DNA from: Rhynchobatus australiae
Taxonomy: Eukaryota
Assembly (NCBI GenBank): GCA_034780895.1
Contig: JAUZTB010000064.1
Location: 59,838,044 to 59,902,043, forward strand
DNA: 64,000 nt
Reading direction: 5' to 3'
Part shown: positions 65 through 64,000 of the stretch, piece by piece
Layout of the letters: each line of letters begins with the position of its first letter
How positions within the stretch are numbered: position 1 is the first letter of the stretch
Notes under the pieces: generated by a model
The model's database searches: none
What the model was told of the DNA's origin: nothing
The model's input: only the letters and a program-made list of their open reading frames with translations
Translations under genes and position numbers: made by a program

Positions 65-141
65 CTGAACACCTGGTGTGTCTTGAACTTGAAGTGCAAG
101 TTGCTCTCGATCTACTTGTACTTGTCTGGAGTATAACGTAC
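65..141 (-). CDS. RASL11B: RASL11B coding exon 3 (77 bp): (G)TLYSRQVQVDREQLALQVQDTPGVQ; contains the G3 box DTPG
   Basis: Acceptor atatttcag (142-150) and donor CAG|gtggg (64-60). Frame is continuous with exon 2. Peptide matches the RASL11B pattern LYxRQVQxxxExLALQVQDTPG. Confidence 0.96.
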
Positions 142-267
142 CTGAAATATTATTAGCAAATAGAGAATTACTTCATTTTTGACTGAATGGTAGAGTTGAT
201 ACAGACTAAATGAAGCTACTCGATGCCGTAAATCAGACTCCTAAGTATTCTTAACATGGGCACTTAC

Positions 268-324
268 CCGCATTTCTTTCGTAGTCGCCAATAAACCTTC
301 TGGTTAAAAACCGCACCACCAAAG
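268..324 (-). CDS. RASL11B: RASL11B coding exon 2 (57 bp): (A)[18 protein letters not shown](G); switch I region
   Basis: Acceptor ttcttcttcag (325-335) and donor G|gtaagtg (267-261), phase 1/1. [20 protein letters not shown] is the RASL11B signature; RASL11A has AMIVRF...DYEPNTG. Confidence 0.97.
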
Positions 325-715
325 CTGAAGAAGAAATAAGTGGGATTGTGAAGTTGCGTGTCAACCCAAACGTGGATTCTTCCCCACATCCCCCTCCCGC
401 TCCAAATAATGCATTTCACAGTGGACGGGGAGACGCAGAGCTCCAGTAAAGAATTTCTCTCCAGACCACTATTCCCCAGAGCAAAATAACTCCGATTTTC
501 TCCATTTGTCAAAACCCCTCCTCCGCCGCGTGGGGGACACGTCCTTGGCTGCAGCCGGCGTCGGAGGCTCTCTGCAAAACACACATCAAAGCCCGGCGAA
601 CCAACCTGCTGACCCCGCAGCTCAGCTCCCTGGGCTCATAGCCACAACCCACCACACCGACCGGCGCCTGCAGCTGACCCGCCGGGTTAAGGCTCGTCCA
701 GCCCAACTCCCTCAC

Positions 716-830
716 CCGTTTTGCCCACGGCGCTGCCGCCGATCACCGCGATCTTGATCACCCGGTTGCTGGGCGTATATTCCGCAGGTCCATACTCCTG
801 GATCGTCGACATGTTCTGAACCAGGCGCAT
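716..830 (-). CDS. RASL11B: RASL11B coding exon 1 (115 bp CDS): MRLVQNMSTIQEYGPAEYTPSNRVIKIAVIGGSAVGKT; Ras-like small GTPase P-loop
   Basis: ATG at 830-828. N-terminus MRLxQNMxTIxEY is typical of RASL11B. P-loop GxxxxGKT. Donor G|gtgag at 715-711. This is part of ORF 687..977 in the track. Confidence 0.96.
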
Positions 831-52075: not shown

Positions 52076-55000
52076 CCAAATTTTGGGAGTGAGCAAGTTT
52101 ATAATGTACGTAGACATCACTATCTTCTCAATTCTTTATGCTGGAAAAGGTGCTGACATAATTTCAAGCTAAACTGACCTAAGACATTCGGCAATGGCAC
52201 TGTTTTCTTTTACTGGACTGGAGGCTTTGGTGGAAGAGATGATAAAGACTTCCCATGTCCACAGTGAGCTAGAAAGTCTTCCAGTGGCAGATTCCAAAGG
52301 CCATGGGAGAAGAAATTTCTTTCAATCAGTGCCAAGAATCAAGCCCCAAAGATTCAGGTATAAAAACACAACTCAATAACCTCAATGAAGTTCAATGGGT
52401 CATCAGTGAGTACATTTGTAAATGCCAATAACCCAACTGTAGCACTAGCCTCAGTCCCTGCTTTCAGTGCGCCACACCCCCATCACTCACCTACTAACAG
52501 TCTATTAATCAGGCCTGAGCCAAGCTTTATTTGCTTTAATACACCCTCAGATATTTATCATTGCTGCAAACTTCACATTTATATCTGGAAGCATTGCAAA
52601 TATCCATTCATGACAACTATATTAACCAAGCACATTGTGCCACACCAATGAACAAACTTTACCTGCATGCGTGGAGAAAGTGGCTCACAACTCTAGCAAC
52701 AGTATCTAACTGATGAGCATCAGAAATCAGTGCATCATTTGCCCTACATTAAAATCCATGCCCACTATAACCCAAATTGTCATAAGTGTGTATGGCCAGC
52801 AGTGGAGAGGAAGTCATAGATGGTAGCAGTATCTTCATATCTAATCTTTCATACACCCATTTCACCCTTGTCTCAATCGCCTCTGCTTTACATGAGAGAT
52901 GTTGAAACTCTTGCTTTCTACCCAATAAATCCCCAACTATATTCCTTTTCATATGCCCAAGCACTGCAAAATGGGTAGTGCTGAAGAGTTAAAATATACA
53001 CTGCTAAATCAATTTAATAGTGCCAGAGGTTTCCAGAACTTTAAGTAATTTTCCAAGTCATTTCTAAGCCAGATGCTAGATTAACCACAGAGGTTAATTT
53101 AGTGATAAGATCATCATATGGTGAGTTACCTGCTAATAATAGCCCAATGGAGGGGGAAGGATAACATAGTTGTCTCATTCCAGAGGAAAAAATAAATCAC
53201 CATTGATTTCTGATGCAGAGGAATTGAATGAGGACCATTGAGGCAGCCTGCAGTGGCTGGCAGGTATCCACTGTGGAACAGTTGGTGCATTGAGAGTCCC
53301 ATTTCAAAGATTCAGCACCACCTTGCAGAACACACTCTGCAAAATCTAGAGCCCAACTTTTCTAGCATGGATGTAGTGGCCAGCTCAGTTTTGACGTGCA
53401 GACTTTAATTTCATGCACCATCTGATGGCCAATGCCCAGCTTCTATTACAGCACAATAGAAGCCACCTAATATCTGAACCCTGCAGTGAAGAACTCTGAC
53501 TGCTGTTATGCCTGTGTTCAGAACTTCAGGATATCACAGCAGTCAAATGTTCAACATATTATGGGATTGCTAACACAGCTCCTAGGAACAATGGTTCTTA
53601 AGAGCACAGATCTGCTAAACTCCCACAAGTATCTTTACTGTTGCACACCAGCTTGTCAGCCTTGTTACCTACAGCTCCTACAGAGGACAAGCCTAAAGCG
53701 GAGACTTATTACCAAAAGCAGCACAACCAGTTGAACTCAGACAAGTTGGGTTACAAACCTAGGTTACCCTCTCTTTATCCAGCTACTCCTCATATATAGC
53801 TTGGGTCATGGAACAAACCTTCATGATGCCAGAGGTCCTTGTGGTAAGATGCTGAATGTAACTAAAGGGTTACAAGCATCTTTCTCTGTTAGGACAATTT
53901 GTTTTTCCCCAGGAGTTACTGAAACTGTGTTGTGAAACAGCAAGACATCAATATGGATGGTAGCCCCAAGCATTAATTGGGTGCAGTTAAACAGGCAGCT
54001 TTGCAAAACAATCAGGGTCTGCTTGAGCCAAGTGAGACAATGGGGAGTGTTAATTTGCCCATCAGACAAGATCCCAGGGCGTTGCTTGAGTTTGTCACAA
54101 ACCTTTCTCAGCTGCGCACTCATGGAGCCACCCGCCCGCTAGAAGATTGAAAATTTTTCTGTTCATTAACAGTTGAATTTTTCTGCACTAATGACCGTTG
54201 AGACTCTCAAAAACAATGGGAAGGTTTAGCAAAGGTGTGGAAACCTTTGTTATGCTAGGACCAAATGAGGCACAAAGGCCTCCTTGACTATAAAGATGCA
54301 TCCCACAAGAGTCCTTCAGAGCTTCTCCACAAGTTGGTTCATGGCCAACACCTGCCAACTGTCAAAATCTTCTGAAGTACCCCAGGACTCCCCTTCAGTG
54401 ATAGACTGAGTGGCAGAGAACACAATGTTGCCAAGTACTGGATGCCAATAAGTATTGCTGAGAACTACATGCAAACTTGAGGTCAATTTTACCAGGGAAG
54501 TGGTAAGTGGAAGAGTTTGGGATTTTGGTTCTGTTTCTTTTCATTTGGGTTGATTAGATTTGTGTAGTGTTACAGACTAGGTTACTATTGGCAAATGTCC
54601 CTTTAAGATTGTGTGTGTGGGTGGTGTGCTTACATCAACAGNNNNNNNNNNNNNNNNNNNNNNNNNNNNNNNNNNNNNNNNNNNNNNNNNNNNNNNNNNN
54701 NNNNNNNNNNNNNNNNNNNNNNNNNNNNNNNNNNNNNNNNNNNNNNNNNNNNNNNNNNNNNNNNNNNNNNNNNAGGTGTCATTTGGGTTCCAGAGTGGAA
54801 CATTCAAGAGCCTTTTGGGGCGAGGAAGATGCGGTGGAGTCATCACTGCTGAGTAAACACTGAAGGTTTTAGAGATCTCTCTCCCTCCTTCCCCAGAAGG
54901 AAATCAACAAAAACATGCAAGCCTGCAACTTGTTTTAAAGAGGGCAGCCTGATACCAGAAACTTCAGAATGGACCATCAACAATATCTTGAACTTCCATG

Positions 55001-55703
55001 CAGCACTAATCGAAGACATGCCAGCTGCTCAGACAATCAATTACACATGGGCTTACTGTAGATCATTTTGTAGGAGTGCTGGTTGTAGGGAAGTATTAAT
55101 TTTCCACATCCTGGATTTAAAACTGCAGGCATTATGGGTGTTGACATGTTTGCTCCTGGACACTTTGGTGCTCATTATCACTCTTGCCCCCAGGCTACCT
55201 CTGCCCAATTATTAGGTTCAGGAGTAAAATTCTTGACTAGAGAAAGAGCAAGGTTACCATGAGCTGTCAGATATGGAGGCAGCAGCAATAAAAGCCAAAA
55301 ATTGCAGAATAGTCAGACAGCATCTGTTGAGAAAGTTAGCATTTCATGTCAATAGCATTTCTGAAAGAAAATGCTGTATGTTTACTCAATCTGTAGCTGG
55401 TAATCAAAGGTTGAGTGAGAATATCCAGGCTTGAAAACTTACCCAGACACAAATTCTGATTCATCTAGTTTAACACTATGGTAGTCACAGTCAATATTGG
55501 GGAAGTTAATAGTCATCCACCATTAAAACCTTATTAGCCCTACAGCTATCTCCTAATATAGTCACACCTAATTCCCACTGACTACTCAGTGGGGTGGGGG
55601 GAGAGAATAAATTATAGTACAATCTCAAAGATATCACCCCCTTCTTATTCCTAATTTCTATAATTAGGANNNNNNNNNNNNNNNNNNNNNNNNNNNNNNN
55701 NNC

Positions 55704-56750
55704 ATGATGTTCTCCCTAATCAAAAACACAACTCGCCCTCCTCTCACCTCCATCTATATCAGGCCTGTAGCATTTGTATCCTGGAACATTGAGCTGCCAG
55801 TCTTGCCCATCCCTCAACCATACTTCTATAATAGATATCAAAATCCCATGTGCCTACTTATGCCCCAAGTTCATCTGCCTTACCTGTCAAGATCCTTACA
55901 TTAAAATAGATGCAGTTCAGCCTATCACACCTTCCTGTGGCTCCTTGGTCTGTCCTTGCCTACTGGATTTGCTTGCATTAATTTCCTCATTTGCTTCAAG
56001 TTTCTCATCTGTCACACATTCCTTCCAGATTAATTTAAACCCTACACAACTCTAGCAAATCTCCCTCCCAGGACATTGGTTCTTCTCCAGTTCAGGTGCA
56101 ACCCATCCCTCCTGTACAGGTTACCTCTGCCCTTGGTGATCCCAATGGCCAAAGAACCCAAATCCCTCCCTTCTGTACTAACTCATCAGCTACACATTCA
56201 TCTGCACTATTCTTCTATTCCTATCCTTACTGGTGTGTGGCTCTGGGAGTAACCCAGAAATTACAAGCCTGGTGGTCTTGCTTTTTAACCTTCTGCCCAA
56301 CTCCCTATACTGCAGAACCTCATCCCTTTTCCTACCAATATCATTGGTAGAAAACTGTACAGTGACCTCTGGCTGCTCATCCTTCCCCTTGAGTACATTT
56401 TGCACCCAGACCTCCTTGACCCTGGAGGCAACATACCACACTGGATTCTCAACCACAAAATCTCCATCTGTCCCCTTATCAAGTCACTACAGCTGCCCTC
56501 AACTCCATTCTCTCCTACTGTGCATTAGCCAGTCATTGTGCCAGTTATTACCACTCCCCTCCTAAACAGTATCCAAATGAACACTTTTTAGGAGGGGAAT
56601 GACCATAGGAGAATCCTGCACTTCCTGTCTAACCCTCCCCCACCCCCCAGTGGTCATCCAACTGCTGCTTGTGACCACCTCTCTAAAGCTTCCGTCAACG
56701 ATGGCTTAGGTTCATGGATACTCCCAAGGGAGCCCAACTGCAGCTCCAGC
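55704..56750 (-). mobile_element. CR1 LINE 5' region with ORF1 SGNH-esterase-like domain and start of ORF2
   Basis: ORF 56190..56456 (RVKEV..VQNVLKGKDEQPEVTVQFSTNDIGRKRDEVLQ..RELGRRLKSKTTRLVISGLLP) is characteristic of CR1 ORF1. Confidence 0.85.
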
Positions 56751-57334
56751 TTTAGTTTACTTCAAAGCTATCACTGAAGAACTAATTTAACAGGTGCAAT
56801 ATATTAAGTCACATCCCAACACATTTACTTCTGCATATTGCAATCTCATGAAGGTTTAAGCCTTTTCAATTCAAGGAGACTAAAGTAGAAAATACTCTAA
56901 TTTGTTTAGCAATTAGACCACAGTACTTTCTGGTCTTATATCTCAGCCATGAACCATGTCAAATCATAAAAATGAAAAAAACATCACAAGATTCCCAATG
57001 AATTTACTTTGCAAATACAAGCAACTTAGATAACATCAAAAGTTGAATTTTTAATATTTTTCCTTATATATTTTGCTCCCCCCCAAAAAGAGTTCTATTT
57101 AAGGTCAACATGCCCTTAATGAACAAAACTGAAAGACATTTGATAGTAGAGAGTACTTCAGATGAACACTGATTTTGCTTTCAGATGCTTCACAGTATCA
57201 ACAAATGTCAGCAGCATTAAGATTTACAATTTCCCAACCAATAACAAATGTGTTTCACTACAGTGCTGATACTTGCCAGAATGTATCAAGGTACATTAAG
57301 CATTATCTAATCACTCATTGATCAACAAATCAAT

Positions 57335-57453
57335 GAAACAGAGGAACTCAGTGGGTGAGGCAGCATCTATGGAAGGAAGTGGACATTTCAGGTCAAGACC
57401 CTTCATCAGGACATTTCCCTCTATAGATGCTGCCTGACCTGCTGAGTTCCTCC
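57335..57453. repeat. Palindromic Penelope-derived repeat retaining a hammerhead core on the minus strand
   Basis: Arms gaggaactcagtgggtgaggcagcatctat / atagatgctgcctgacctgctgagttcctc; minus-strand CTGATGA-AGGGTCTTGACCT-GAAA at 57409-57386. Confidence 0.75.
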
Positions 57454-58286
57454 TGAAAATGGGCAGTGGCAGATGGAATATAGTGTAGAGAAGTATACAG
57501 TCATACACTTTGGTAGAAGGAATAAAGGCACAGACTATTTTCTAAACTGGGAGAGAATTCTGAAATTGGAGGTGCAAGGGGACTTGGGAGTCCTCGTGCA
57601 GGATTCCCCAAAGGTTAACTTGCAGGTTGAGTTGGCAGTATCCAAGGCAAAGGCAATGTTAGCATTGATTGAGAGGATTAGAACATAAAAGGACACAATG
57701 CTGAAGCTTTGTAAGGTGTTATTCAGACCACATTTGCAGTATTGAGAGTTTTGGGCCCCTATCCAAGGATGTGCTGACATGGAGAAGGTCCAGAGGTTTA
57801 CAAGAATGATCCCAGGGTTACTGTATGAGAAACATTTTATAGCTCTGGGCCTGTACTTGCTGGAGTTTANNNNNNNNNNNNNNNNNNNNNNNNNNNNNNN
57901 NNNNNNNNNNNNNNNNNNNNNNNNNNNNNNNNNNNNNNNNNNNGCCGCACGGAGCGAGAGAGATCTCGAAAACCGTCTGATTACTGTAAGGCCCAGATGG
58001 TGTGGACATGGAGAGGATGCTTCAGGTAGTGGGAGAGTCTAGGACCAGATGGCACATCAGAATAAAAGAACATCCCTTTCCAACAGGGACAATGAGAAAT
58101 TTCTTTAGTCAGAGGATGGTGAATCTGTGTAATACATTGCCATAGATGGCTGTGGAAGCCAAGTCATTCAATACATTTAGAGTAGAGGTTGATAGAATGG
58201 GGTCGAGAGCACAAGATAAATCAGCCACAATTGAATGGCAGAGCAGACTCAATGGGCCAAATGACCCAATTCTGCTTGTCTTGTTT
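57454..58286 (+). mobile_element. CR1 LINE 3' portion inserted into the Penelope-derived palindrome
   Basis: WQMEYSVEKYxVIHFGRRNK...DLGVLV; the palindrome arm resumes at about 58291 (gtgttgctccagattc); ctcc on both sides. Confidence 0.8.
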
Positions 58287-60570
58287 CTCCACTGCAGTGT
58301 TGCTCCAGATTCTTAAATCAAGAATTTAATGGCACCCAGAAGCATTTCAGGCACTTACCTGTATAAGGGTTCATTTCAGGTATCCACTGTCATGTACATT
58401 ATAGTACAGCTGAAAATCAGTTTTGATAAGGATTTACAATCTGAAACATCAATTCCTCTTCCCAGTTGCTTGACCTGATGAGCATTTCCAGCATTTGCTG
58501 TTATTATAAATCTACTGGGAACACTGTACAGGTAGCCCATACATACAAGCATTTGTGACCAGAATAGATTTGCCACCACAACAAATGGGAGCTGTACTGA
58601 GTAGGGTAAAGCTGGAAACACTGAGCAGACTCAGTCAGTAAGGCTGACAACCACTCTTCCCACATGTTCATTCACCTCCACAGCTGTTTGTTCACTTTTG
58701 ACTTGCAACCAGTTCCCTGGAACAGAACTCTGTTGTAACTTGACTTCCTGTGTAGTAATTTGAGTTTAACAAATCTACTGGAGGTTTCTACTGACATTAG
58801 CTTAGTACCCAACCTATCCCAATTTTCTTAAGACTAATTTGCCATTCCCCATGGCATAGTTGGCCCACCAGCAATACTCTGCAGATAGCAATTTAGCCAA
58901 CTACCAGATTTTCCATCCAGTCAATACAGACTTGAAAGTTAAGGAAATTTTAAAAGTGCAATGATCTTCCTATTTTAATGCTGCAAATTAAAGTAACTAA
59001 AAAATTACTTTTGTATATTCTTAGTTTCATTTATGAAGTGTTCAAATACAAGGTCCTAAATCCCTGAAGAACTAACTTTGACACACCAGAAGAGGTTATT
59101 TGTGCAGTTGACTTCTACATTGCAGCAGGTAATAGCAATTCACCCTCACATAATTTAAAGTTTACCAAGAAATCTTAAGATATGGAATAAAAATTTGCTC
59201 ATGAAATGCAGGATTTTATTTGCAACTCACAGCTGACATGGTTTTGCATTACATAAAATTGTGATACATACCATTTTGTAGGAATGCAACCTCCCTGATC
59301 AAGTGTTGTTTGCCTGCCTGAGGACAAAGAACAAATTCTATAGCTGGTTCAAATGATCATGCTCAAAGCCTGAGATAGCACAATGGGAAGCTTGCATTCT
59401 ACTCAGAATGGAGTATAAACATCTCACTGCATCTCAAAGGATCACCTTTTGCTTAGATAGGATTTGCCATGAAGTCTTCTATTGCTGCACATCCTGCATT
59501 CACTTGGAGAACTGGTCACCACTGCTTTTAACAGAAAATGGTCTTGCTGCTTGCAAAAGACCTGTGTCTGCCTATATTATGTACATACTTAACACCTCAG
59601 CTATGGGAAACAATCAATACATTCTAAAAATACAAGGACAACTTAATACATTTCTGCAAAATATAAAGTATTAATGTTTATTGTACAAGTCACTAAATTA
59701 TTCTGGGATGATCAACAAAAACAAGTGAAAGGGCAAATAATCCAAGTTACAATTTAAAAGTTTTGATGCACCACAGAATGTGTTGGATTACATGTTCTCA
59801 CATTTATGCTGCTCCCGGTTTGATTTACCTAGAAAATAGAAAATAGTTTATCATTTTGCAGCAAATTCAGCCCTCTCCATTCACTTGCTCTGGTGTATGT
59901 TTTCACATACACAGAAGATAATACCCATACCAAAACATGGCCTGAGGCTAGCGAAGTTATTAAACGAGATTAGAACACCACACACACACAAAGACCACTG
60001 ATACTATTCAGAAGAGATAAATGCTGGAGGAAGTCAATGGGTCAGGCAGCATCTGGGATAGTCAACATATTGGATTGATATCCTGCATCACAACTAAATA
60101 AGTTGACCTTCCCAGATGCTCCCTGACCCACCAAGTTCCTAGTTTTTTTTGCTTCAGACCAAATACAAGGTAGGTTTTCACGATGCAGTGACTCAATTCT
60201 ATCAGGCACAAAATTACACCAATATTCCCTGGTTATTCATCTCAATTACTGAGAGATCAAATGCTATATTTGCTTAGATACAATCACTATTCTTCAAAAC
60301 CAAAATTTGAGCAATTCACTAGTATAAAATTAATCTGTGGCATTTACAGCATTATATAAACCATACTCATTTTACCATCTTCATTTTTTCCATTAACTCT
60401 GGGGAAAACCCCAAACATACTGAAATGCTTTGAGAGATGGATATCAAACCCGATCATGTATGAAACCCAACTCCCTTCCACCCCCAAAAAAATGTGACTC
60501 AGTATTTTGTGAAATCAGGTAGCATTTATTCATACTCACCCCACTCTCAGCTGCAGTTATAACAGAATAC

Positions 60571-60707
60571 AGTTGTTCCTTACGACAGGATCCAAAGCAA
60601 TGATAATGCATTTTGCTTTGTGTTTTAGAAAGAAATTGCTCTGCCCTTCTGTGTTAGTCATCCAAGACATAATCAGTCTTGGATGGGCAATGATGAAAGG
60701 GGGAGAC
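60571..60707 (-). ncRNA. SNORA26: Box H/ACA snoRNA, SNORA26-like (copy A)
   Basis: Hairpin-hinge-hairpin-tail fold. 5' stem CATCCAAGAC/GTCTTGGATG, H box AGAGCA (60642-60637), 3' stem CAAAGCAA/TTGCTTTG, ACA (60576-60574) 3 nt from the end. Pocket arms TAAAAC and CCTGTC are complementary to conserved 28S GACAGG-UUA-GUUUUA. CTAACACAGAAGGG and TTTGGATCCTGTC..ACAACT match recalled SNORA26. Confidence 0.9.
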
Positions 60708-61983
60708 AAATTAAGAAATTCCAAGCAGCTCAGGCACAACCCCCTTGCACAATCATACCTCATAGCACGTTCTTCCAGATTTCAAATCCCCATTATTTGT
60801 GCTCATTTCATTGCTCTGCAAATGGGGAAAAAATTTAAACAGGTATGACAGCAACAAAATTTAATCATTACAATTTCTGATACAAATCTACAGTTGTTAA
60901 AAAGTTAGCTTTTAATAATCAAGACAGACAAGAGATTCCCTTGCCTTGGATTTGAAGGAATATCTTTGTTACAGGTCTATTTACAGTCCAAACTGACAAG
61001 GTTAAACAAAGTTAAATTCTTCTAGTCTTAAATTTTCTGGTTTCTCCTTTTAACCTCACTTCCCTTAATTTTGGCTCAGTTTATTTCATTAAGTGTATTA
61101 GTTAAAAGCTTTGAAGTTGCACTATACTTACAATATATAAAATCTGACTGCTACAACTGCACACATTAACTTTAAAATCTGAAAAGCCCACAAGTTTTCT
61201 GCCAGTATGATCCAAAATCCAGCAGGACCTTTCGTTTAGATAAAGAAGTGATCTGCAGTTGACATTAAAACCAGAAAGTAGCAATAAGGTACAGATTTTT
61301 TTGCCTGTTCCTCTTGCTGCACCTTCAGGCATTTATCAAATAAAAACACAAGCAATGAAGACTTGGTAACTTAAGAGAACTGTTGTGTCAACAGTCCGTC
61401 AAAGGTGNNNNNNNNNNNNNNNNNNNNNNNNNNNNNNNNNNNNNNNNNNNNNNNNNNNNNNNNNNNNNNNNNNNNNNNNNNNNNNNNNNNNNNNNNNNNN
61501 NNNNNNNCAAAGGTGCCAAACATTTGTAATGCTTCTAAAAGTCACTGACATTCAATATAGTTCAAAAACAAAACTAAACAATCACTATAACACCAGAATT
61601 GCAGTGTGCCTTTTATCCTCACAGCTACAACAATCTGCTAAATTGAATGGACCAGTGGATTTAACCTGCCACAAGATCAAAGAGCAGATTCGCTAACATT
61701 AAAAGCACAATCTCAGAAATTCATGCCATGTCATTGTAGGATATAGCAGCAGTTTGTTTGCAAATTTCAGTGGACCCCCAAGTTCAAAATTTTGATGTTT
61801 GAATGTATTTTAAGGATAAATGTTGGTAGTTTACTATGGATCTTTATACTACACATGCTAACATTCTCACCTGAGGACACCCAATGCTTTGTAAAATGGT
61901 TGCCTCAATGAAAAACATTGAGATTGTAAAGCTGTGCCAACCTTGAATTTCTTCAATGTCCAAGGCAATAACTTAAGAACAAT

Positions 61984-62114
61984 AGCTGTTCCTCACGACA
62001 GGATCCAAAGCACTGACAGCACATTTGCTCTGGGTTTGAGAGAGAAAATAATCTGCCCCTCTGTGTTGGACACCCAAGACACTGTCTGCCTTAAATGGAC
62101 AATGAAGGGGATGC
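61984..62114 (-). ncRNA. SNORA26: Box H/ACA snoRNA, SNORA26-like (copy B)
   Basis: Paralogue of copy A: H box AGATTA (62054-62049), GCTTTGGATCCTGTCGTGAGGA-ACA-GCT end (ACA at 61989-61987), stem CCAGAGCA/TGCTTTGG, 5' hairpin closed by CCCCT/AGGGG. Confidence 0.88.
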
Positions 62115-62362
62115 AAAACAAAACAATTTATACTCAAGACATTTTACTCTTACTGTTCCCCACCTTGATAACTCATAACACTTCCAAATGTACATCCATC
62201 TTCATTTTTGATTGTTTATTCAATTCACCTACAATTGGAGAAGCAGAAACATAATAAAACTACCAAATTTAGGGCTTCATAAGCTTACTTAGAAGCACAT
62301 AATTATGAAGATGCTATTTAAAAATCTGTAAAAAAACTGCAATAGTCAATTAATAGAAAGAA

Positions 62363-62493
62363 GTGTGTTCCTCTAGACAGGATCCAAGACAACAAGAAAA
62401 ATGCCCCGGTCTGAAAGAGAAAATTATTTACCCCTTGGTAATGGCCATTTAAGACACTGATCATCTTAGATGGGCAAAGCTGAGAAGGGGGAT
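62363..62493 (-). ncRNA. Box H/ACA snoRNA of the SNORA26/SNORA27 family, SNORA27-like 5' hairpin (copy C)
   Basis: H box AAATAA (62429-62424), ACA at 62368-62366, 3' end TGTCTTGGATCCTGTCTAGAGGA-ACA. The 5' part CCCCCTTCTCAGCTTTGCC...TGTCTTAAATGGCCATT..AGGGG resembles recalled SNORA27 more than SNORA26. Confidence 0.83.
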
Positions 62494-63419
62494 TTGGACA
62501 ATGAAACCCAATTATCAGCATTACTGCTGACTCAATCTAATTGATCTTAAAAATTTTGCAAATATAAATTACTTCAAATCATCCACAACCCTGAACTTTA
62601 CGGTTTCATCATCTTGTCATCAATTGTTGCCAGTCTCGTTTGTGTGGTTTGAAGCCCAAAAGCATGAATCAGTTAGTAATAAAATGGAACTGCCAAAAAT
62701 AAAGTTTCCCTTCTAATTTGAAAGATCCAATACCATATTCCCACTGCCCTAGTTGAGATTTACCGACTGAGCAAAGACAAAAATTAAAATGAGTTTATGG
62801 TTCATTTCAGGTTAAATCAGTCACCATCTCATCTTTTCTTCCCAACTCACAGGCTATTGCATTACAAACCAATCTCTTCCCTCAAGTTTCTTCATTGGAA
62901 TCCATGAGATTTGGTTTCCAGTTCCAGCAGAATGGAAATGGCAAAAATAATGTTCAAATGTGACCACTGTTCTCAACCTGTGTTCAACCAAATGTGTTCA
63001 TTGTTCTCAACCTACTGGCATTGTAGCCCAACAGCTGGCCACTACACCCATAGCAAATTATATCCATAGCCCAGCAGGCTGCAATTCCTCACTTGGTTGC
63101 ATTCTTGTTTAAACTAGCTCAGACACCTACAATGGTTTCTCTCCCCTCAGGTGATATTACCCTTACAGCAGCCAAGCCCACCCCCCAACCTCATGCTCAG
63201 GATACTTACTAGTGCCCTTACACTCCTTGTCTACATTAGTGATATTAAAATAAAACACCTACCACAACAAGCTTCTCAACCCAAAGCAACGATTGCTTAT
63301 TTCCCTCCATAGATGCTGCCTGACCTACTGAGTTTCTCCAGCATTTTGTGTGCATTGCACAAGCATTTTGTTACCTCTTCCAAAACTCCTATTTCAAATG
63401 TGTCGCTGTATATGAATGA

Positions 63420-63715
63420 ATCATGTAGCAAGGAAACAGGCCCATAGTTCCGATGGGCCCACGCCGACCAGCTTACACTAATGCCATTGTATTCCCCGCA
63501 CATTCTCATCAACTCTCCCCCAGGTTCTACCCTCCCATCTGCACACAAGGGGGCAATTTAGTGACTAATTACCCTACCACTCTGCACGTCTTTGGGATGT
63601 GGGAAGAAAGCAGAGCAGCCGGAGAAAACCCATGCGGTCACAGGGAGAACGTACGAACTCCGGAGGTCAGCATCGACCATGGGTGGTTAGAGCCACCAGT
63701 TGCACCACCTTACCA
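63420..63715 (-). mobile_element. HE1/V-SINE
   Basis: gtctttgggatgtgggaagaaagcagagcagccggagaaaacccatgcggtcacagggagaacgtacgaactcc V-domain. CpGs are still present, so it is young or lies in an unmethylated region. Confidence 0.85.
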
Positions 63716-63769
63716 CCCCCTTAAAAACCACGTGCTCCACTTAGATTAAGAAATATTAAATTTCACCTG

Positions 63770-64000
63770 CCCGATGACCGAACGGTCCATTTACCAACCC
63801 CATTTATAAACTGGACGCGGGTATCTGAAGAACACTGCGCTTGTATCCTCGTCATTTCAACCCACCAGAACTGCGTGGAAGGGAAGCTCTGGCGACTCCG
63901 CCATGTGACCGGGCTTCAACCCCCCGCTCAGTAACCGAGTCCCGACGCCATCGACCACGAGGTCGGCACCGGCCCGGAGCCGAACCATGCGGGTTGGGGC
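63770..64000. promoter_or_regulatory. Edge of a second CpG island with YY1-like CGCCAT motifs (63899-63904, 63946-63951)
   Basis: Sharp rise in GC/CpG up to the window end; interpreted as the promoter/first-intron region of the snoRNA host gene. Confidence 0.7.

Follow-up and report, generated by a model that had tools for sequence, protein, structure and literature searches.

The window, a 64,000-nucleotide stretch of DNA from Rhynchobatus australiae, carries three genes for H/ACA snoRNAs of the SNORA26 family. All three copies share a predicted 3' pocket for 28S Psi4522, and their 5' pockets have probably split, with that of copy 1 directed toward 18S Psi1177 and those of copies 2 and 3 toward 28S Psi4549. 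The existence of several SNORA26 copies is already known, there being two in zebrafish and two in Xenopus, and the three copies reported here extend the pattern by one. It is the predicted pocket divergence, rather than the copy number, that is new.

Three SNORA26 matches (RF00568), all on the minus strand, were the only Rfam hits in the window. Each covers model positions 1-122, and the gathering score of the model is 40. Copy 1 is located at 62363..62491, with its 5' end placed on the basis of the lower stem; the Rfam alignment (62363-62477) scores 43.2 bits with an E-value of 1.7e-4, the H box, AAAUAA, lies at 62429-62424, and the ACA box at 62368-62366. Copy 2 occupies 61984..62110 (Rfam 61984-62102, 74.3 bits, E 7.7e-12), with its H box, AGAUUA, at 62054-62049 and its ACA at 61989-61987. 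Copy 3 is positioned at 60571..60703 (Rfam 60571-60690, 65.3 bits, E 1e-9), its H box being AGAGCA (60642-60637) and its ACA lying at 60576-60574. The three paralogous minus-strand blocks claimed in a preliminary description of the window are all above the family threshold, and the identity proposed there, that of H/ACA snoRNAs from the SNORA26/SNORA27 clan, is in agreement with the Rfam match, the boxes, and the two-hairpin fold. An ANANNA H box and an ACA three nucleotides from the 3' end were also as described in all three copies. Within the clan, SNORA26 is the best match for every copy and SNORA27 (RF00443) for none. The shared 12-mer TTGGATCCTGTC, the 3' guide motif that is identical across the copies, occurs three times versus an expected 0.45, a count reached in 0 of 100 shuffles. 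The copy bodies are 65-75% identical, as compared to 47 +/- 3% for random local pairs, with copies 2 and 3 forming the closest pair. No fourth copy was found in a permissive E-value scan of 54000-64000, where three of the 13 matches listed were SNORA26. The word tandem, applied earlier to the cluster, is not appropriate, for the copies are not arranged head-to-tail and are spaced by 253 and about 1280 nt.

As delimited by Rfam and HGNC, SNORA26 is missing the 5' side of both the lower stem and the pocket. In each copy, a run of C residues 8-14 nt upstream of the Rfam start pairs with a run of G residues preceding the H box. When the C-run is added and hairpin 1 is folded alone, a lower stem, an open pocket, and an upper stem are observed in all three copies, the upper stem being that quoted in the preliminary description. 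In these folded models the snoRNA genes begin 8-14 nt before the Rfam model, and with the added bases the 5' pocket takes on its canonical form. For human SNORA26 the annotated start is 53579416, whereas expression begins at 53579405, which is 11 nt upstream (PMC4914119), and the Xenopus SNORA26 copies have listed lengths of 138 and 136 nt (PMC6984369); the 122-nt Rfam model is thus short. The claim of two hairpins per copy holds for hairpin 1 as folded, whereas hairpin 2 is canonical in one of three copies by minimum energy and in three of three by the Rfam alignment. Whole-molecule folding of the short (Rfam) spans gave z-scores of -1.25, -0.58, and -3.36. The changes in the 10-bp stem were earlier said to preserve pairing, and they do so in 29 of 30 cells, the sole exception being a C-A mismatch in copy 1. 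Only one of the ten pairs, however, shows a double-sided change, and four show one-sided changes. Covariation over the upper-stem rows was equaled or exceeded in 270 of 500 shuffles, with only three sequences available, and 4 of the 30 consensus pairs carry double changes.

Every pocket was scanned against 1418 uridines contained in a protist 18S and 5.8S rRNA (L166) and a non-vertebrate 28S rRNA (L108). The target rRNAs were stand-ins, supplemented with short human and Xenopus contexts, and none was from a cartilaginous fish. Human and Xenopus modification maps supplied the contexts of Psi3694, Psi4522, Psi4546, and Psi4549 in 28S (PMC6182160) and of Psi1174 and Psi1177 in 18S. Note that the fits to 18S-1177 and 28S-4549 were first spotted by eye and that the scan came afterwards. 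In the rRNA search, 2 of the 57 viral-contig matches were 28S pieces, the 18S motif had no viral matches, the 107 metagenome loci looked non-vertebrate, and one of two matches in genomes was full protist rDNA. Positions 1302-8616 of L166, although filed in a bacterial genome, constitute a complete eukaryotic rDNA unit and represent contamination of that bin; the unit contains one or more group I introns, and telomere-like repeats are found at the contig end.

All six pockets pair with a known vertebrate pseudouridine context at 14-15 nt from the box, the shuffle test having been applied to the hairpin 1 pockets. The preliminary description named 28S Psi4522 as the target of the copies. This covers the 3' hairpin only, and the fit of the 5' pockets to different sites was missed. 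Copies 1 and 2 provide only four contiguous left-side pairs for 28S Psi4522. In the scan this known target ranks second for copy 3, sixth for copy 2, and outside the top six for copy 1, and because it ranks so low the scan must be regarded as a blunt tool, unable either to establish or to dismiss a weak guide.

The 5' pocket of copy 1 extends over 62438..62483, with its left strand at 62483-62474 and its right strand at 62444-62438, and it is positioned 15 nt from the H box. When placed on 18S-1177, the left strand forms ten contiguous pairs 3' of the target uridine, and the right strand forms four pairs followed by two more past a bulge. The 18S-1177 equivalent is the best site, ranking first among the 1418 uridines at -24.4 kcal/mol, with the next independent site at -19.8 kcal/mol. 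Only 2 of 300 pocket shuffles fitted as well, and no other hairpin 1 beat its shuffles. By inspection, the left helix would reach 12 pairs with the allele that organisms B and E carry at 62484; among the shared substitutions listed, it is the sole one inside a snoRNA. The 18S-1177 pseudouridine is present in nine of nine vertebrates mapped. Its published guide is Xenopus SNORA26x (PMC6984369), and according to that report the 1177 element is absent from the SNORA26 of every other species. The human guide could not be identified (PMC4914119). No prior assignment of a non-frog 18S-1177 guide was found in the papers searched. Copy 1 appears, from its sequence, to be the second case of a SNORA26 with the 18S-1177 element, after Xenopus, and the case for its pocket having diverged toward 18S Psi1177 is strong.

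The 5' pockets of copies 2 and 3 (62103-62099 and 62068-62062 for copy 2; 60691-60687 and 60656-60650 for copy 3; both on the minus strand) are predicted to accommodate 28S Psi4549, which ranks third of 1418 for copy 2 and first of 1418 for copy 3. With the Xenopus 28S-4549 context each forms 7+5 pairs in the same register as copy 1, so that 1+2 bases beneath the upper stem stay unpaired, and neither pairs with the human 28S-4549 context. The two pocket positions that differ between these copies both face a target G, such that C-G is exchanged for U-G. In 30 of the 107 eukaryotic 28S loci the searched hexamer is followed by the bases needed by the pocket, which is the commonest continuation. 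The uridine at 28S-4549 is modified in Xenopus and is 100% pseudouridine in human (PMC6182160). Under its alternative number, Psi4579, the guide is given as "Unknown" (PMC9941101). The entry "28S-4549" is absent from the searched target file of PMC4914119, the supplement of PMC6984369 lists neither 4549 nor 3678 as a target, and term searches of the main text found no guide for 4549/4579 in PMC3349704, PMC10454564, PMC8763049, PMC12976135, PMC11863803, and PMC12776523. No prior guide for 28S 4549/4579 was found in the papers searched. Divergence of the copy 2 and 3 pockets toward 28S Psi4549 is proposed with moderate confidence.

One alternative is that copy 1 guides 18S Psi1177 whereas in copies 2 and 3 the 5' pocket serves some other site or lacks a target altogether. 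Neither pocket beats its shuffles, for 72 of 300 (copy 2) and 87 of 300 (copy 3) were as good on energy, and in that test the best site for copy 2 was a competing uridine at position 1229 of L108 with 7+3 pairing. Careful published target searches, moreover, left 4549 without an assignment. Those human searches, however, may have employed the short annotation, as judged from the gene coordinates. In addition, the register of copy 1 falls on a known pseudouridine for which no guide is listed and which is top-ranked for copy 3, and the differences between copies 2 and 3 maintain pairing. We consider this alternative rather unlikely.

The preliminary description treated the copies as redundant guides. 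Accordingly worded, such a reading would have them function through the 3' pocket for 28S Psi4522 only, as a matter of dosage, with the 5' complementarities arising by chance and the hairpins serving a structural role. It accords with the identity of the 12-nt 3' motif, with the nonsignificant 4549 fit, and with published tables in which 4522 is the only target assigned to SNORA26 with confidence (PMC4914119, PMC6984369). The 14-16 pairs between copy 1 and 18S-1177, on the other hand, are better than 298 of 300 shuffles and match the Xenopus specificity, and the AACAC strand is kept from the three ray copies to human SNORA26 and the Rfam consensus. The copies are probably not redundant because their 5' pockets fit different sites, and an explanation by dosage is unlikely.

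Could copy 1 instead be a SNORA27-type guide for 28S Psi3694? SNORA27 (ACA27, RF00443, in RPL21) belongs to the same clan and shares the 3' target 4522, 28S-3694 is the site assigned to its 5' pocket, and by eye the first 20 bases of copy 1 resemble the human SNORA27 5' end. Zebrafish dancr is annotated with snora27 (PMC12694859), and a 4 + 4+3 pairing with 28S-3694 is possible for copy 1 only. The calculated energy for 28S-3694, however, is -9.4 kcal/mol versus -25.1 kcal/mol for 18S-1177, and the best clan match is SNORA26. This assignment is highly improbable, although a dual role for copy 1 is conceivable. The SNORA27 host is protein-coding, unlike the non-coding host predicted here. The left strand of human SNORA27 differs from that of copy 1 by one missing G, the absence of which perfects its pairing with 28S-3694. 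By inspection, human SNORA27 can also be placed on 18S-1177, with four pairs on the right (the first being U-G) and 6+5 on the left at 15 nt from the H box, which makes it a candidate human guide for 18S-1177.

Four of the 13 listed sequencing runs were aligned (X1, X2, X3, X10), and all were contigs with DNA-like coverage. Among the joints listed for these runs, none falls on a predicted splice site, which is to be expected of DNA contigs. In a source-like run the depth over the snoRNA copies is about 5-10 as compared to 2e4-6e5 over neighboring repeats, and in a blastn search against the window the three copies matched only each other above noise. These observations rule out a dispersed repeat, a concern raised at the outset, and the copies are single-copy DNA. 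In organism E, a second species, one contig of 2949 nt spans 60029-62585 with all three copies. Of the 25 substitutions listed as shared by organisms B and E, one, that at 62484, lies in a snoRNA. In the three pieces covered by both organisms, none of the 23 listed shared substitutions falls within the 219 snoRNA bases out of 1650, which is a weak result (P about 0.04) that leaves out 61604 and 62484 as lying outside the pieces. Decay of any of the copies into a pseudogene, or an origin from a dispersed repeat, is scarcely credible given the depth, the single organism E contig, the boxes intact in three of three copies, and the one listed shared substitution in 25. This holds even though copy 1 is barely above threshold, with one mismatched stem pair and a second loop that is shortened, and even though one nucleotide of the copy 3 loop, at 60611, is deleted in organism E.

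An assembly gap of 100 N (61408..61507) separates copies 2 and 3. The same eight bases are found on both flanks, and the organism E contig crosses from 61397 to 61511 with two letters between. The gap is very likely an unmerged overlap rather than missing sequence, and a fourth copy hidden within it is very unlikely given the repeated flanks and the bridging contig. The organism E contig also contains about 270 extra bases at 60402-60432 (record 376 to 674). Very high-copy repeat fragments, with a summed depth of up to 6e5, are located at 60019-60140, 63299-63352, 63560-63660, 57339-57456, and 58194-58276; some are inverted pairs that give weak, sub-threshold Rfam hits to plant miRNAs. These fragments are likely pieces of shark/ray SINEs or MITEs.

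The first three coding exons of RASL11B were identified through protein matches at 830-716, 324-268, and 141-65 (65..830, minus strand). Eight to nine of the 15 matches bear that name in full or in part and none is RASL11A. Exons 2 and 3 weakly match RERG/RASL12 and Rap1, and the Atlas gives weak Ras leads. The closest named relative is from a ray (90%), with a chimaera at 79%, in keeping with the cartilaginous fish host suggested in the preliminary description. The snoRNA copies share the strand of RASL11B and precede it by about 60 kb on its upstream side, which is the position of DANCR. The DANCR host is multi-exon and non-coding, is situated between USP46 and RASL11B, and carries its small RNAs in separate introns, and this arrangement is reported for the elephant shark as well (PMC12694859).

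Consensus scores predict two non-coding host exons on the minus strand, one between copies 1 and 2 (62164..62228; acceptor 62229, donor 62163) and a homologous one just upstream of copy 3 (60759..60815; acceptor 60816, donor 60758). A candidate last exon at 59660..59828 (minus strand) has a strong acceptor at 59829 and an AATAAA at 59682, its 3' end being approximate. A CpG-rich stretch at 63501..64000 on the same strand (GC 0.55, CpG o/e 0.81), with a donor candidate at 63766, may represent the host promoter or first exon. No Pfam family was above cut-off in the 54 minus-strand stop-free frames. In the copy-3 unit (60703-60830) a donor GT follows TATGAG; the copy-2 unit (62110-62245) reads TT there, and the next donor candidate is 8 nt on. 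AG|GT sites at 61870, 59828, and 62228 on the minus strand score as acceptor and/or donor. No donor of the region scores higher than that at 61870, where an additional small exon located between copies 2 and 3 may end.

The flanks of the copies were initially considered unrelated. This is correct for five of the six comparisons, which are at chance (171-996 of 1000 shuffles), but the upstream 130 nt of copy 2 can be aligned with those of copy 3, all the way from the acceptor to the donor, with a score of 35, reached in 1 of 1000 shuffles. Since copies 2 and 3 share this exon-like upstream block and resemble each other most, a unit of exon plus snoRNA was most likely duplicated locally to produce them. 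The choice between an expanded and an ancestral multi-copy state, left standing earlier, is in this way partly settled, the multi-copy state itself having been known beforehand.

The RPL21 locus has the order USP12-RPL21-RASL11A, so that RPL21, the host of SNORA27, lies beside RASL11A. The DANCR and RPL21 loci look like sisters of a genome duplication, and DANCR may be a decayed RPL21 copy. No L21e domain was detected in the 54 stop-free minus-strand frames, a search in which a true Ras exon was also unmatched and which is consequently insensitive. No paper on DANCR-RPL21 paralogy was found in the literature searched.

A single non-coding host transcript likely yields the three snoRNAs, each released from an intron of its own. 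By analogy with established H/ACA biology, splicing and trimming would be accompanied by loading of dyskerin, NOP10, NHP2, and GAR1, and the uridine positioned at a distance of 14-15 nt from the H or ACA box would be isomerized. Following duplication of the exon-plus-intron unit giving rise to copies 2 and 3, as their sequences suggest, a few point changes could redirect one pocket from one rRNA site to another that resembles it. SNORA40 (ACA40) provides a parallel: that family serves 18S-1174 and 28S-4546 (PMC6984369), which precede the two proposed sites by 3 nt each, and the 18S and 28S regions are therefore alike enough for one family. SNORA40, though, is of an unrelated family and host, and one RNA is assigned to the two sites, a task that in the ray would be split among separate copies.

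Like the ray copies, human SNORA26 (HBI-6, RF00568, in DANCR) has the covariance model match, the boxes, the 4522 pocket, the position upstream of RASL11B, and the strand. Human DANCR, however, contains one SNORA26 and the ray window three copies. Counting all small RNAs, zebrafish dancr (snora26 and snora27) and human DANCR (SNORA26 and MIR4449) each hold two (PMC12694859), as compared to three here. The forward primer for zebrafish "snora26" contains CATTCAAG, a SNORA27-type pocket strand for 28S-3694 (PMC12694859 S5 Table), and zebrafish copy names may thus not track the 5' targets. In Xenopus tropicalis, snoRA26 and snoRA26x are neighbors, as part of a general trend toward more copies than in human; snoRA26x combines a 5' pocket for 18S Psi1177 with the 4522 pocket, as does copy 1, and no 5' target is assigned to snoRA26 (PMC6984369). 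Because the 1177-type copy is second in Xenopus and first here, the likeness of copy 1 is one of specificity, and orthology with SNORA26x is not implied. For the 5' pocket of human SNORA26 no target is accepted, 4606 or 2299 being given with a low score (PMC4914119). The "reported" 28S-4606 is the target of SNORA81, and the aliases HBI-6 and HBI-61 suggest a mix-up of names (PMC4914119).

By eye, human SNORA26 keeps the 7-pair right strand. To be placed on 4549 it would have to pair in a register two bases away and to carry CATG just upstream of its annotated start. A broader proposal, which we regard as tentative and somewhat doubtful, is that SNORA26 guides 28S Psi4549 (4579) in jawed vertebrates including human, that an 18S Psi1177 guide is shared with cartilaginous fish, and that in human this latter job may fall to SNORA27. 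Within that proposal, the role of SNORA26 would have been overlooked because its annotation omits the first 11 bases. 28S Psi4549/4579 is fully modified in human with no listed guide, and the 18S Psi1177 guide is known only in Xenopus. The ray copies name specific guide candidates for these sites, together with a reason for the oversight, namely a 5'-truncated model. If the proposal is true, DANCR-locus phenotypes may include the loss of a ribosomal mark without backup, and the family would illustrate cleanly how a duplicated snoRNA can switch targets through a handful of point changes.
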